64,000 nt of DNA from Eledone cirrhosa. Taxonomy: Eukaryota. Under the pieces are notes generated by a model. That model did not search any database and had not been told where the DNA came from. It worked only from the letters and a program-made list of their open reading frames with translations. Positions 21,427-54,654 of this stretch are shown here, piece after piece (position 1 is the first letter of the stretch; every line of letters begins with the position of its first letter). The stretch covers positions 425,630,001-425,694,000 of the forward strand of contig OZ024740.1 of NCBI GenBank assembly GCA_964016885.1, given 5' to 3'. Both the position numbers and the translations under genes were made by a program.

Positions 21427-21918
21427 GCAGAGGTTATATTCAATTTGTTGGGATTCAACAAGCTTAAAAATGTTTATAACTGATAGAAAGCACTCAACAA
21501 GTTAGTGGAGTAAATACACAATATATTAATTGTTTCTACTTTTGGCACAAGGCCAGCAATTGCCCAGTGTATTACTGGTACTTTATTTTAAATAAATGGA
21601 AACTATATATATAAAACCATATTTATTATATTATACATATTTCAAGGCAAATTATGGTGCGCTTTCATCAGATAAAATACAGATTTGTTTTATAAATAAA
21701 TATTGACACCGCCGGAAAAAAAAAGCCTATCCAGGAAGCTCCAACCGTTAAGGCTTTTTTTTCATTCCGGGTATGTCAATATTTATTTATAAAACAAATC
21801 TGTATTTTATGTGATGAAATCGCTCCATAATTTGACTTGGTTGCCCTTGAAATATGTATAATAAAATAAATATGGTTTTATAAATATAGTTTCAATTTAT
21901 TAATATATTGTATATTTA
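21427..21918. mobile_element. Fold-back Penelope-like terminal element, family A, in (TA)n; interrupted by a SINE fragment at 21530-21590
   Basis: Inverted arms at about 21511-21727 and 21751-21918. An extra ~85-bp tail (21427-21510) is on the left arm only. The same sequence occurs at 34838-35012. Confidence 0.8.
21624..21679 (-). ncRNA. Type I hammerhead ribozyme motif (family A)
   Basis: Minus strand: TATTTTAT-CTGATGA-AAGCGCA..TGCCTT-GAAA-TATGTA-TA/ATATAATA. The mirror copy on + (21803-21868) has a mutated core, GTGATGA. Confidence 0.7.
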
Positions 21919-22168
21919 TATATATATATATATATATATATATATATATATATATATATATATATATATATATATATATATATATATATATATATATATA
22001 TAATATATTAAACTTTATCTGTTATTTTAATAAATATATATATATATATATTATGTTCATAATATATATATATATATATGAGAAATAGATTGATCGGAGG
22101 TTGTCGATAGGATTTAAGTCAGTAGCATGAGCCGAAAGGTGAGAGCGAATTATATATCATATATATAT

Positions 22169-22425
22169 GTTGAGTATTTCTGTAGATAAGGTAAAGGAAA
22201 GAAGAGTGCTCTATGTATAGTACAGAGCTATCTAATTACATAATAAACAACACAATATAATTATTCCATTACCCAAGGTTTCACGAAGCTAGACAATTCT
22301 AACAGAAACGTTTGATATTGTTCATCAGAAAGGATTCGTTCTGATGAATGATATCAGACGTTTTTGTCTAGCTTCGTGAAACCTTGAGTAATGGAATAAT
22401 TATATTGTTTTGTTTATTACATAAT
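22169..22425. mobile_element. Fold-back element, family 1, with hammerhead cores in both arms
   Basis: Arms about 22241-22330 and 22339-22418 flank an AGGATTCG spacer. CTGATGA at 22341, GAAACC at 22378; the 5' strand of stem I is truncated. Left tail ~70 bp, (TA)n flanks. Homologous to 29844 and 48316. Confidence 0.8.
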
Positions 22426-23343
22426 TATATATATATATATATATATATATATATATATATATATATATATATATATATATATATATATAAATGTGTGTGT
22501 GTGTGTGTCAATGGTGGTACTCCAGCATGGCCTGCATGTCGGCTGGAACATGTAAAATAGTAAATATATGTGTGTGTATGTGTGTGTGCGTGGATTGTAT
22601 TTTCGTGTGAATATCGGAATGTATGCGTATATCAATATGTATGTATATCAGTGTGTGAGTGCGTGTGTATGCGTGTGACTGTGTGTGTATGTGTGAGAGC
22701 GTATATCAATATGTGAGTGTGTATATCAGTGTGTGAGTGCGTGTGTATATGTGTGACTGTGTATGTGTGTGAGTGTGTATGTATTTGATTGTAGGTATAA
22801 TGATTGTGTCTGATGTAATAATGACCAAACCGTATCTCTCCTGTGTTAGATAATTTGTAGCATAAGAAAGAGGAGGTAATTTGAACAGTTTAATTAAACT
22901 ACCATGTTGCCGCAGTAAATTATATTAGATTCAGCAAGCTAAGCTAAATTATACGTCTTCAGCTAAACATTACTTGCTGGCGATATTTTTCTCTGGCGGC
23001 TTACATGATACAGAGTAGAAATGTCCCATTCTTTGATCTTCTAACGACTTTCTTTTTCCATTAAATTAGATATGGGTGGGAGTTCACATATTTCATTTCT
23101 CTCTCCTCCTCATTCTCATTCTTTTCTTCATTTTCACCCACTCTCTCCGTTGTCCCATATGTGTGTTCGTATGTGAGCGTGTGAGTCTGTGAGTGTGTGT
23201 ATGTGTTTGTGTCTGTGTGTGTGTGCTTTTGAGTGTGTGTGTCACATTTATTTTTGCTTTCTGTTTTACTTTCTATTAGTTCCTTTTAGTATAAGCGTAT
23301 ATATATATATATATATATATATATATATATATATATATATATA

Positions 23344-23506
23344 ACGAAGGAAATGTGGTAAGGAACCAGGTGGACCATAACGCACCAAAGTACTCAATAC
23401 TTAGGGTAGTAGAGTGGGTAATAGGAACGAGTAGGACCCCGACGGCTGAGCTCAAGCCGTTTCGAAACGGCTTGAGCTCAGCCGTCGGGGTCCTCCTCGT
23501 TCCTAT
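23344..23506. mobile_element. Fold-back element, family 2 (hammerhead 3' half)
   Basis: Near-perfect 43-bp arms centred on TTTC|GAAA (23463/23464). GAAA-CGGCT..AGCCG-TC is stem III plus a GUC site. ~77-bp tail on the left arm, (TA)n on both sides. Second copy at 30535. Confidence 0.8.
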
Positions 23507-23517
23507 ATATATATATA

Positions 23518-24178
23518 AAGAGGTTAACGGGAGTAGCATAAGGTTTCCCTGCTAGTACCGGTTGCATCTCAGCGTTCTCAATAGGTAAGGTTATGTAAAA
23601 GTCCCAGAGTAGACACAAAGTTATTTGCCTCGATACAACACACGTAAATGGATACCATAAATTCATGCCCGTACTCGAGTTTCGAACACGTGTAAGGCAA
23701 TAAGGGAGCGTACACCATCCACTGTCTGCATTTATTATGCAATAATGCACAATCGGGGTATGTAGCTTCATCAGCGGGTCTCATCTAATCTATAACCAAT
23801 CAATCGACAGGATTCGATTCCAGTCAAGCGACACAGTAGTACAGTAGTAACTGAAATCGCTACACGTCATCAAAATACTGCCAACCGATTGGCTACAGAA
23901 ATACCGCCAACCGGTTGGCTACTGGCTCAGAAATTCACGTGACGCCTAGGAGTCGAGATTATATGCTTCGGCCCTTCCATAAGAACTCAACCAACATATC
24001 TCAAGTCAAACACAAATTAACAAGTGAGCGAATCGTATCGCTGTACAATAGTATGGTAGCATTAGGCTCTAGTCTCCAAGTACCATGGCAAATGTGGTGC
24101 GACAATAAACAAGGGTAGTATCTAAAACCTTCCCGGTCATTAAATGTCAACAGACAATTAGACAGCAAATAGAGAGTG
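23518..24178 (-). mobile_element. Non-coding ~660-bp insertion between TA tracts carrying a hammerhead motif at 23668-23778
   Basis: Minus strand: CCCG-CTGATGA-(84 nt)-GAAA-CTCGAG-TA/CGGG, with palindromic stem III ACTCGAGT. Confidence 0.6.
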
Positions 24179-24224
24179 ATATATATATATATACAGGCAT
24201 ATATACATACATATAGATGATTCC

Positions 24225-53478: not shown

Positions 53479-53510
53479 ATATATATATATAAATATATAT
53501 ATATATATAT

Positions 53511-53853
53511 CAAAGGTACGTATTGAGTTAGAAACTCAAAATAGTCTCTTAGAATTGAATAGCTCAAAGAAACAAGTTTTTCTGAGCCGTGTAATATAAT
53601 TGAATATAAAAGAGAGATAAACACAGATCTAAACATACATGTGTTCAAATCGTAAGGGACCAGATTCGCTAGTGTGAAAAAAATACTAACTATTAACAAT
53701 AGGGTTTGCCAGACTCAATTTAAAACAATAAATCAAGAAAAGAAATACAAACCGATATTGGGCAACTTCCTAACACCCAGACAGCTGGTGCCTTACGATT
53801 TGAACACATATATGTTTATATCTGTGTTTATCTCTCTTTTATATTCAATTATA
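53511..53853. mobile_element. Fold-back element with ~70-bp arms and an ~85-bp left tail
   Basis: 53595-53664 mirrors 53786-53854, with TA flanks. No convincing ribozyme core. Confidence 0.7.
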
Positions 53854-53868
53854 TATATATATAAATTT

Positions 53869-54315
53869 AAATTTAAAGGTATAGTACTAGGAAAAACAAA
53901 CGACTAGGCATGAAATAAAGGTTAGCGGAGAAATATTTATTTAGAGTCCGTTCTTTAACATATGTTTCAATACAATATCAGTCTATGAGCGCTGATTTAT
54001 TTTATTATACTCAATCACAAGCATTACATAAAACACTACACTTCATCAGAAAAAGTATAGTGTTCATAGTTGTAGGTGAGGTCGCTGTATCTTGCAGTAA
54101 GGATTTTCTTACCGTTATCTACTCGGACTTAAAGGCAACTTCTTGCCTAGTCGTTTGTTTTTCCTAGTAATATACCTTTAAATTATAATTACTCCGCGAT
54201 CTTCCACTTAGATACTGTAGATTAAACTCTGAAAATGGACTATTACCGTACCTCCTGCAATGACCATGTCTGGAAAAATACTTTGGTAAGCAAACTTCCA
54301 GAGAAGCTATAGATG
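53869..54315. mobile_element. Fold-back element with hammerhead motif at 53952-54054 (-)
   Basis: Arms 53872-53913 and 54140-54182, tail on the right. Motif TTTTT-CTGATGA-AGTGTAGTG..TATTGTATT-GAAA-CATATG-TT/AAAGA. Confidence 0.7.
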
Positions 54316-54360
54316 TAAATATTTATATATATATATATATATATATATATATATATATAT

Positions 54361-54582
54361 GAATGAAAAATGGGGTGCTCCGTTGTTGCGAATATGAACA
54401 TATGAATAAAAATAGACCGAGAAACAAGAATGTCCGTCACCAGTAGCCTGCTGATTATCATTGGTATTTCTTCGCATTAAAGACTAGATACCTAAAGTCT
54501 TTAATGCGAAGAAATACCAATGATAATCACGAGGCTACTGATGACGGACATTCTTGTTTCTCGGTCTATTTTTATTCATATA
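54361..54582. mobile_element. Fold-back element with ~86-bp arms and a ~40-bp left tail
   Basis: 54400-54485 mirrors 54496-54581, with (TA)n on both sides. Confidence 0.8.
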
Positions 54583-54616
54583 TATATATATATGTTCCGT
54601 ATAACCATGTCCATTA

Positions 54617-54654
54617 CGAGCTGAGTATCCGCTAAGGTGAAACAATTGTTCTCG
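54617..54654 (+). ncRNA. Minimal hammerhead-like motif with damaged core (G8U)
   Basis: CGAG-CTGAGTA-TCC(GCTAA)GGT-GAAA-CAATTG-TT/CTCG. Confidence 0.55.

Follow-up and report, generated by a model that had tools for sequence, protein, structure and literature searches.

The closest described relatives of the elements considered here are Penelope-like elements (PLEs) of the Hydra and Neptune types and the animal retrozymes. Hydra-clade PLEs are diagnosed by an RWK-type motif, DKT, a CxCX5C linker, CxxC and CxH, and one member, Hydra-1_Obim of Octopus bimaculoides, carries a hammerhead ribozyme and prefers (TA)n targets (Craig et al. 2021, PMC8557442). In metazoan PLEs, many families per genome have been described with minimal hammerheads, mostly as single motifs of truncated elements (Cervera and de la Peña 2014, PMC4209133). 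Animal retrozymes lacking long terminal repeats (non-LTR) are described as few-hundred-nt non-coding head-to-tail units of low GC content, with one type I hammerhead per unit and coexisting PLEs (Cervera and de la Peña 2020, PMC7229834; Li, Clavereau and Pollet 2026, bioRxiv 10.64898/2026.07.22.740005); both of these papers propose PLEs as the retrozyme helper. Here we compare with these systems a 64,000-nt stretch of the 3.0-Gb genome of Eledone cirrhosa (OZ024740.1, 425630001-425694000; hereafter the window), and within it the region 21427-54700, which holds 48 (TA)≥6 tracts and 20 motifs that an initial annotation had listed as type I hammerheads.

The region is probably a pile-up of (TA)n insertions, in which truncated ends of Hydra-type and Neptune-type PLEs lie among closed non-coding units likely copied in trans. 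For the most part it consists of unremarkable PLE debris carrying known ribozymes. Hammerheads in PLEs, the targeting of TA and retrozymes have all been published, and most of what we describe consists of new members of known groups; new here are a unit bearing a candidate type-SGC hammerhead and the PLE insertion signature on retrozymes. Features are listed in Table 1.

Type I hammerheads beside (TA)n tracts

A purpose-written type I descriptor, requiring the boxes CUGAnGA (or its U3-A8 form), GAAA and UH in type I order together with stems I-III, gave 13 matches in the region, every one among the 20 listed motifs (a first, stricter descriptor gave 4 and was superseded by this looser one). 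The matches start at 21624, 34759, 34877, 36234, 36701, 44284, 51567 and 53952 on the minus strand and at 29995, 44035, 46951, 48416 and 51227 on the plus strand. With simple repeats stripped, 12 motifs are left, whereas 100 local dinucleotide shuffles gave 0.15 on average and at most 3. Of the seven failing motifs, six are recognisable by eye as mutated copies with a core or stem change: 21803 (C3→G), 22341 (stem I broken), 23668, 29872 and 31063 (mismatches in stem II) and 54617 (G8→U). Relatives of 23668 pass the descriptor at 5 of 19 loci, and one relative of 31063 passes. The seventh, 37581, lacks GAAA, has no passing relative among 14, and is doubtful as a hammerhead. The initial figure of about 20 type I motifs is thus upheld for the 13 and for the six mutated copies and falters at 37581; by insertions the count is 16, several motif pairs being the two arms of a single foldback.

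The motifs had been placed roughly 50-230 nt before a TA tract, and this polarity is borne out: in 18 of the 20, the predicted cut site lies 16-229 nt from the next downstream (TA)≥5 on its own strand. The exceptions are 36701, which lies in the upstream unit of a tandem (696 nt), and 31063, which is followed by just a degenerate TA run (1366 nt). Core variants among the window families comprise U4→A, U4→C and U3-A8. As in the metazoan PLE hammerheads of PMC4209133, there are many families, mostly present as single motifs of truncated PLEs, opposite-strand pairs 100-700 bp apart, U3-A8 cores, an extra nucleotide after A9 and palindromic stems III.

Stem II was examined in family A, for which 47 relatives were gathered by their 3' tail alone and 19, picked by eye free of near-duplicates and truncated copies, were aligned. 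It shows compensatory changes (G-C in 10 and A-U in 9 at one pair; U-A in 12 and C-G in 7 at another), and its covariation of 0.258 is equalled in 0 of 500 shuffles, with slid controls at 0.05-0.15. Were the motifs chance matches in AT-rich, foldback-rich DNA, one might expect what an Rfam search of the window returned, namely no hammerhead at the gathering score or at E≤10; about 1.4 of the 35 matches in the genome sample below are also expected by chance. Set against 12 motifs where 0.15 are expected, the TA polarity and the compensatory changes, chance is scarcely credible as an explanation. The type I motifs are confirmed as real, and from their sequence they are predicted to self-cleave. 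Among the checks proposed in the initial annotation, comparison with shuffled sequence, enrichment near (TA)n and stem covariation in family A all came out in its favor; a search by Rfam and a relaxed descriptor gave a split result, none by the former and 13 of 20 by the latter.

The pairing of hammerhead and (TA)n is genome-wide, not local. Forty evenly spaced 10-kb pieces (400 kb) held 35 type I matches, compared with 0-3 in 8 shuffles, and 28 of the 35 lie within 300 nt upstream of (TA)≥6, as do 18% of 7245 random positions. Bootstrapping gives a genome count of 139,000-379,000 hammerheads, with a median of 252,000. This estimate of ~250,000 is high against the ~2,000-9,000 per genome given in PMC4209133, from which it differs in descriptor, so that the two are not strictly comparable; a giant squid paper gives 235 Rfam hammerhead hits (PMC6962438). 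Motif density is 3.9 per 10 kb in the region and 0.88 in the 40 samples. The idea that the region is a special 'hotspot' locus was rejected, since its roughly fourfold density is equalled by single 10-kb samples, which reach 4-5 matches; the adjoining 70 kb holds 2. In 1.06 Mb of pooled loci, obtained partly by targeted selection, 242 matches fall into 38 hammerhead clusters; upstream extension of these loci was confounded by nested repeats.

Further hammerhead-like sequences occur in the window. At the center of a foldback at 40657-40946 are a first core box and a stem II that belong to another hammerhead-like family, whose relatives show both core boxes. An inverted pair at 24194-24575 and 25823-26183 (81% identical) contains a decayed hammerhead-like motif in each arm, and another decayed motif lies near 25745-25795.

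Penelope-like elements behind the motifs

Three families are joined to Penelope-type open reading frames (ORFs) within the window, as had been annotated. For family J, three of four fetched copies have a single 713-aa ORF with reverse transcriptase (RT) followed by a GIY-YIG endonuclease (EN) at the C-terminus; in the fourth the frame is 5'-truncated. Its predicted protein has RWR at 41, DKT at 119, CNCRNRADC (CxCX5C) at 568, CDLC (CxxC) at 666 and CKH (CxH) at 694, and no CX2-5CxxC linker. By these motifs J is assigned to the Hydra clade, which it resembles in its single ORF, its RT-EN order, RW[K/R], DKT, the CxCX5C linker, CxxC and CxH. The diagnostic motifs were tested on J; families A, B, D, L, N and P are called Hydra-type by tblastn, at ~30-54% identity to J. 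A homolog search with the J protein returned 1214 relatives, almost none of them named, and did not aid clade naming. The J fragment gave 74,227 first-look candidates, which include other PLE families; the 119 that were scored are all ≥90% identical. The corresponding number for the G fragment, likewise including other PLE families, is 43,101.

Full copies of family G encode 775 aa with RT then GIY-YIG (RVT_1 then GIY-YIG in Pfam; the J protein and ORF1 of G were unmatched in the Pfam search), DKG at 155, YLDD, and CGRSNCGTC (CX4CxxC) at 645. Neptune PLEs likewise combine DKG and CX2-5CxxC between RT and EN with a C-terminal GIY-YIG, a microsatellite target and a minimal hammerhead with palindromic stem III (PMC8557442, PMC3846280). 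By DKG and the linker we class G as Neptune-type, with Nematis a second possibility by these motifs, as it shares the CX2-5CxxC linker. In one full copy of G (L122:3852-7315), an upstream frame of 409 aa shares 88 nt in the -1 register with the RT-EN frame, which spans 775 aa and lacks an ATG. Because of this overlap and a UUUUUUA run within it, a -1 frameshift is predicted, a difference from the Neptune PLEs as described; the Fig. 1 legend of Craig et al. 2021 (PMC8557442) mentions a frameshifted ORF1 in some PLE types. The ORFs of both J and G are intact and near-identical between copies.

The initial annotation had taken the coding elements as Neptune/Naiad. Naiads have GIY-YIG N-terminal to RT and DKA, and are reported to lack canonical hammerheads. 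The Naiad label was ruled out for G and J on RT-EN order, DKG/DKT and the presence of type I motifs, and no N-terminal-endonuclease element was found behind any listed motif. The Neptune part of that assignment fits G, and J takes the Hydra clade in place of Naiad.

The families without coding sequence in the window were traced in other copies. For family A, 10 of 19 loci have a Hydra-type ORF end in line, 5 have one on the opposite strand and 4 have none. Family B has an in-line Hydra-type ORF in three of eight long fetches, chosen from 20 loci for long upstream similarity, and in one more with an inverted copy. At 2 of 11 other loci, family L and its EN are colinear; family P has EN 184-281 nt upstream at 2 loci, and family N has a Hydra-type EN in line at 1 of 19 other loci, a single-locus basis. 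Family D, whose two foldbacks had both been missed, has a hammerhead whose full form folds correctly and, at 4 of 20 loci, follows a Hydra-type EN at a distance of 1.1 kb. Positions 30224-30370 hold a diverged relative of the foldback. In all, eight families (A, B, D, G, J, L, N and P) have an in-line ORF, and they account for 12 of the 20 motifs (three in A, two each in B, G and J, and one each in L, N and P). Families B' and B'' share the tail of B, and the upstream sequence of B'' resembles the 3' untranslated region (UTR) of B. No in-line ORF was found for B' among 19 loci, nor one of its own for B'' among 24, where the sole in-line match belongs to an upstream copy of family G. The two are probably sister subfamilies of B, bringing the ORF-linked motifs to 14 of 20. 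Because 12 motifs lie in ORF-linked families and two more in sister subfamilies, most of the supposed parasites are 5'-truncated PLE copies.

These results overturn the statement that the remaining families show no coding sequence, as A, B, N and P (seven motifs) have an in-line Hydra-type ORF elsewhere. They also bear on the system first envisaged, in which the majority would be independent ribozyme parasites without coding sequence, driven by a small number of autonomous Neptune/Naiad elements. The window does contain five or six closed non-coding families, and most of the 38 clusters in the pooled 1.06 Mb have no ORF link so far; with 12 of 20 motifs in ORF-linked families and no N-terminal-endonuclease element behind any of them, this system is highly improbable. 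What endures is that autonomous PLEs and non-coding hammerhead elements share a (TA)n target. The many non-coding parasites shrink to six motifs in closed units, against 12, probably 14, that are ORF-linked.

Like Hydra-clade PLEs, the Hydra-type families have a hammerhead near the 3' end, a (TA)n target, and tandem and inverted copies. Unlike those described, they number at least seven distinct families in 33 kb, have 3' UTRs of up to ~1.6 kb, show the core variants U4→A, U4→C and U3-A8, and in D, L and J have ends 77-87 nt apart (described tails are 30-40 bp). Two observations concern individual families. At L184 and seven other B loci, the long TG/TA-rich 3' UTR of family B contains, in addition to its terminal hammerhead, another hammerhead-like copy that has diverged and lies ~1.2-1.4 kb further upstream. 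Most pooled copies of family D are 5'-truncated at one sharp point within loop II, ~45 nt upstream of the predicted cut, which is possibly a strong RT stop.

Closed non-coding units and family O

The remaining six motifs lie in closed non-coding units of 336, 467, 484, 884 and, weakly, ~480 nt. Family H, with two canonical hammerheads (8-bp stem III) in the window, has 1420 candidates, among which full units are 96-100% identical. Of 26 insertions, 21 contain a tandem junction and 17 an inverted copy; 13 of these 17 inverted copies end at unit positions 399-405. Family F has a tandem junction in 18 and an inverted copy in 13 of 19 insertions, family K is tandem in 9 of 19, and closed junctions were seen in 3 of 19 for family C and 1 of 14 for family I. 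The units of H, K, C and F have a GC content of 0.35-0.45 and a longest ATG frame of 60-78 aa, and no PLE similarity was found in them; their circular-fold z-scores (25 shuffles) are -3.2 for H, -5.2 for K, -1.6 for C and -5.8 for F. As non-coding head-to-tail units with one type I hammerhead and GC below 50%, H, K, F and C match the non-LTR retrozymes in sequence features. Outside the window, short tandem hammerhead units with periods of ~310 nt (L037, L126, L200 and L225) and ~292 nt (L127) were also seen.

Within one insertion, the units of family H diverge by 0.8%, compared with 1.8% between insertions, and 8 variants are private to single loci among the 26 sampled. A circular monomer template would be the simplest reading of this similarity.

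Alternatively, everything may be truncated PLE, the closed units being pseudo-LTR tandems or internal-deletion products of autonomous parents yet unfound. Families A, B, N and P, non-coding in the window, did prove to have ORF parents, and retrozymes are reported to derive from PLE ends (bioRxiv 10.64898/2026.07.22.740005). For the closed units, no ORF-bearing parent was found in 19-30 loci per family, with the best 40 of 395-3103 candidates scored per search, a depth that leaves this alternative some room. It is nonetheless unlikely: the tandem junctions of H, K, F and O lead straight back to the 5' end of the unit itself without any ORF, and the non-coding lineages are old, because relatives of H at 75% identity and of K at 80% are closed units too.

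Family O, missing from the initial list, differs in its ribozyme. Type-SGC hammerheads have the order cut site, GAAA, CUGAnGA, with a 5-bp stem I, a short linker and crossing stems I and III (Eckert et al. 2023, PMC10085705). Family O shares this block order (cut site, GAAA, CUGAUGA, non-circularly permuted), the 5-bp stem I with short linker and the crossing stems, and we regard its motif as a candidate type-SGC hammerhead on this sequence pattern. Its first-look candidates number 1386, the scored ones being 94-97% identical; a tandem junction is present at 14 of 28 loci and both orientations at 12 of 28, and the longest ATG frame on the doubled unit is 165 aa. The window copy carries A6→G and is missing the cut-site block in its second arm; 29 other copies mostly have CUGAUGA. 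An SGC pattern that leaves stem II out has one match in the window, two in the 400-kb sample and none in 10 shuffles, and a scrambled-order descriptor requiring stem II has no match in the window. Among 11 relatives (2 misaligned rows of 13 were dropped), stems I and III include four pairs in which both sides change; the relatives were chosen by a pattern demanding these stems, so that their 100% pairing is by construction. No regular stem II adjoins the core, and a candidate helper helix between stems I and II is 63.6% paired with no double change in the same relatives. Compared with type-SGC as described in PMC10085705, family O has an irregular stem II and a candidate helper helix 64% paired, and it resides in a 550-nt genomic mobile unit of an animal. 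Upstream of nine diverged SGC-type matches (0.5-3.5 kb) there was no PLE ORF of the element itself by queries that did not include a Naiad protein; the one ORF match belongs to a neighboring family A copy.

In the literature found, type-SGC appears only in the 2023 discovery paper (PMC10085705), which as far as covered does not place it in an animal mobile element. We found no published description of cephalopod retrozymes or of SGC hammerheads in animal elements in a search that left subscription literature mostly uncovered. If true, a scrambled hammerhead in an animal mobile element would give this fold a genomic host and a job.

Insertion anatomy and proposed mechanism

The anatomy of EN-bearing PLEs (partial tandem, inverted 5'-truncated copy, microsatellite target) is found in G, J, H, F, K and O. 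The signature published for PLEs consists of partial tandems, inverted copies and a tail, the tail corresponding in vitro to the distance between two internal RT starts (PMC11167929). Here the two fixed ends are separated by 62-68 nt in H, by 52 in F, by 118 in K, by 81 in L, by 77 in D and by 30 in O, and past the end a short TA/AT run follows in the template of H, G, J, K, A, B and F. Copies of the closed units, 1-4 units long, are scattered across many contigs and have an inverted arm, two fixed ends and TA flanks. Unlike published animal retrozymes, these units show PLE insertion anatomy directly, which supports the proposed PLE helper.

The closed units could instead be true retrozymes spread by a helper of the long interspersed nuclear element (LINE) or RTE type, or by local tandem expansion with gene conversion. 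The window does contain LINE-like fragments, local growth of tandem arrays is possible (bioRxiv 10.64898/2026.07.22.740005) and PMC7229834 leaves the helper's identity open. The dispersed 1-4-unit copies have an anatomy described as PLE-specific, however, and no poly(A) tails were seen in the closed-unit flanks viewed, so that such a route is very unlikely.

For insertion by PLE enzymes, we propose the following sequence of steps. (i) The predicted hammerhead of a PLE would lie near enough to the 3' end to outlast 5' truncation. (ii) The GIY-YIG domain would nick (TA)n. (iii) RT would start internally in the RNA, at one or the other of two fixed sites that each coincide with a short UA/AU run. 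(iv) This run would likely anneal to the nicked target, as suggested by the templates that run on with short TA/AT at their ends. (v) One RT start on each DNA strand would yield a head-to-head pair. (vi) A non-coding transcript with two hammerheads may be cut to a monomer, circularised and copied for more than one round, the closed units likely being copied in trans by PLE enzymes.

Several points weigh against this account. The circle and annealing steps are weakened because, in the PLE tested in vitro, that of an anole, the hammerhead could be dispensed with and the RT start shared no homology with the target (PMC11167929); annealing to a nicked microsatellite would thus be a difference from that element. 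The closed units show no similarity to PLE ends beyond their own relatives, which points to no particular helper, and an ORF-bearing parent could be hidden beyond the best 40 scored candidates. The within-insertion similarity is a weak advantage in family F (3.0% and 4.0% within loci, 4.15% between) and a modest one in family K (6.0% and 4.1%, against 7.3%), and subfamily structure inflates between-locus distances. Two family A stem II pairs are often unpaired (8 and 6 of 19). The minimum-energy monomer fold is the hammerhead junction in only 2 of 12 folded motifs, those of H and D; the others have a short palindromic stem III, as in dimer-type PLE hammerheads (PMC4209133), and by this modelling would need dimerisation or protein help. 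The cleavage, transcripts and circles of this account are predictions from DNA sequence.

A broader reading of the same data is evenly poised: that the genome holds ~250,000 hammerheads, that PLE enzymes insert long-lived non-coding ribozyme circles, and that at least one passenger lineage, family O, uses an active type-SGC hammerhead. The enzyme that moves animal retrozymes is still hypothetical in the literature. Young units (96-99% identical) with PLE anatomy occur here alongside Hydra and Neptune ORFs that are intact and near-identical, so that natural components are available for in vitro tests of helper specificity and of what the ribozyme does.

Table 1. Insertions with hammerhead or hammerhead-like motifs, in window positions; a dot marks foldbacks.
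Feature	Positions	Strand	Details
Family A foldback, Hydra-type PLE 3' ends head to head	21427-21916	.	hammerheads 21622-21676 (-), ~21803-21870 (+, C3→G)
Family B' foldback, sister subfamily of B (probable)	22090-22425	.	decayed hammerheads, both arms
Family D foldback	23344-23503	.	3' half of hammerhead (GAAA, 6-bp stem III, GUC) and Hydra-type PLE tail
Family C, 5'-truncated copy of 884-nt closed non-coding unit	23518-24180	-	hammerhead 23668-23778
Family B foldback, Hydra-type PLE 3' ends	29843-30149	.	hammerheads 29872 (-), 29995-30053 (+)
Family D foldback, second copy	30536-30735	.	same 3' half-hammerhead family; not among the 20 listed
Family F, truncated copy of 336-nt closed non-coding unit	30995-31215	+	hammerhead 31063-31108
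Family G stub, Neptune-type 3' end	34623-34834	-	hammerhead 34759-34794, core U3-A8
Family A longer copy, 3' UTR and partial inverted arm	34837-35904	-	hammerhead 34877-34942
Family H, 2.15 head-to-tail copies of 467-nt non-coding unit	36014-37021	-	hammerheads 36234-36315, 36701-36782
Family I, old copy, probable closed unit of ~480 nt	37503-37990	-	hammerhead-like motif without GAAA
Family G, 5'-truncated Neptune-type PLE	41589-44205	+	thumb and GIY-YIG frame 41630-42562; hammerhead 44035-44070; short inverted 3' copy 41589-41686
Family J, 5'-truncated Hydra-clade PLE and inverted 3' copy	44264-47111	+	RT-EN fragment from 44787; hammerheads 44284-44334 (-), 46951-47001 (+)
Family B'' foldback, sister subfamily of B (probable)	48311-48575	.	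hammerhead 48416-48490 (+)
Family K, 1.3 copies of 484-nt closed non-coding unit	50756-51380	+	hammerhead 51227-51308
Family L, Hydra-type PLE 3' part	51440-53849	-	EN fragment 53217-53714, long 3' UTR; hammerhead 51566-51612
Family N foldback	53864-54320	.	hammerhead 53952-54054 (-)
Family O foldback of 550-nt closed non-coding unit	54360-54592	.	candidate type-SGC hammerhead 54425-54493 (-)
Family P stub, Hydra-type PLE 3' end	54593-54750	+	hammerhead at 54617, G8→U

Outside these insertions, positions 1-20400 are satellite, a long array of short degenerate units whose many open frames are repeat artefacts. An inverted pair at 28482-28652 and 29478-29646 (79% identical), in which no hammerhead was found, is MITE-like or another foldback family. 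Broken LINE-like pieces lie at 56844-60526 and 63080-63856, comprising a minus-strand fragment with zf-RVT and a plus-strand fragment from the C-terminal part of a non-LTR element. A short dispersed repeat has three copies, at 21225-21361, 40468-40652 and 61409-61593, and one fragment of it sits within a family A foldback.

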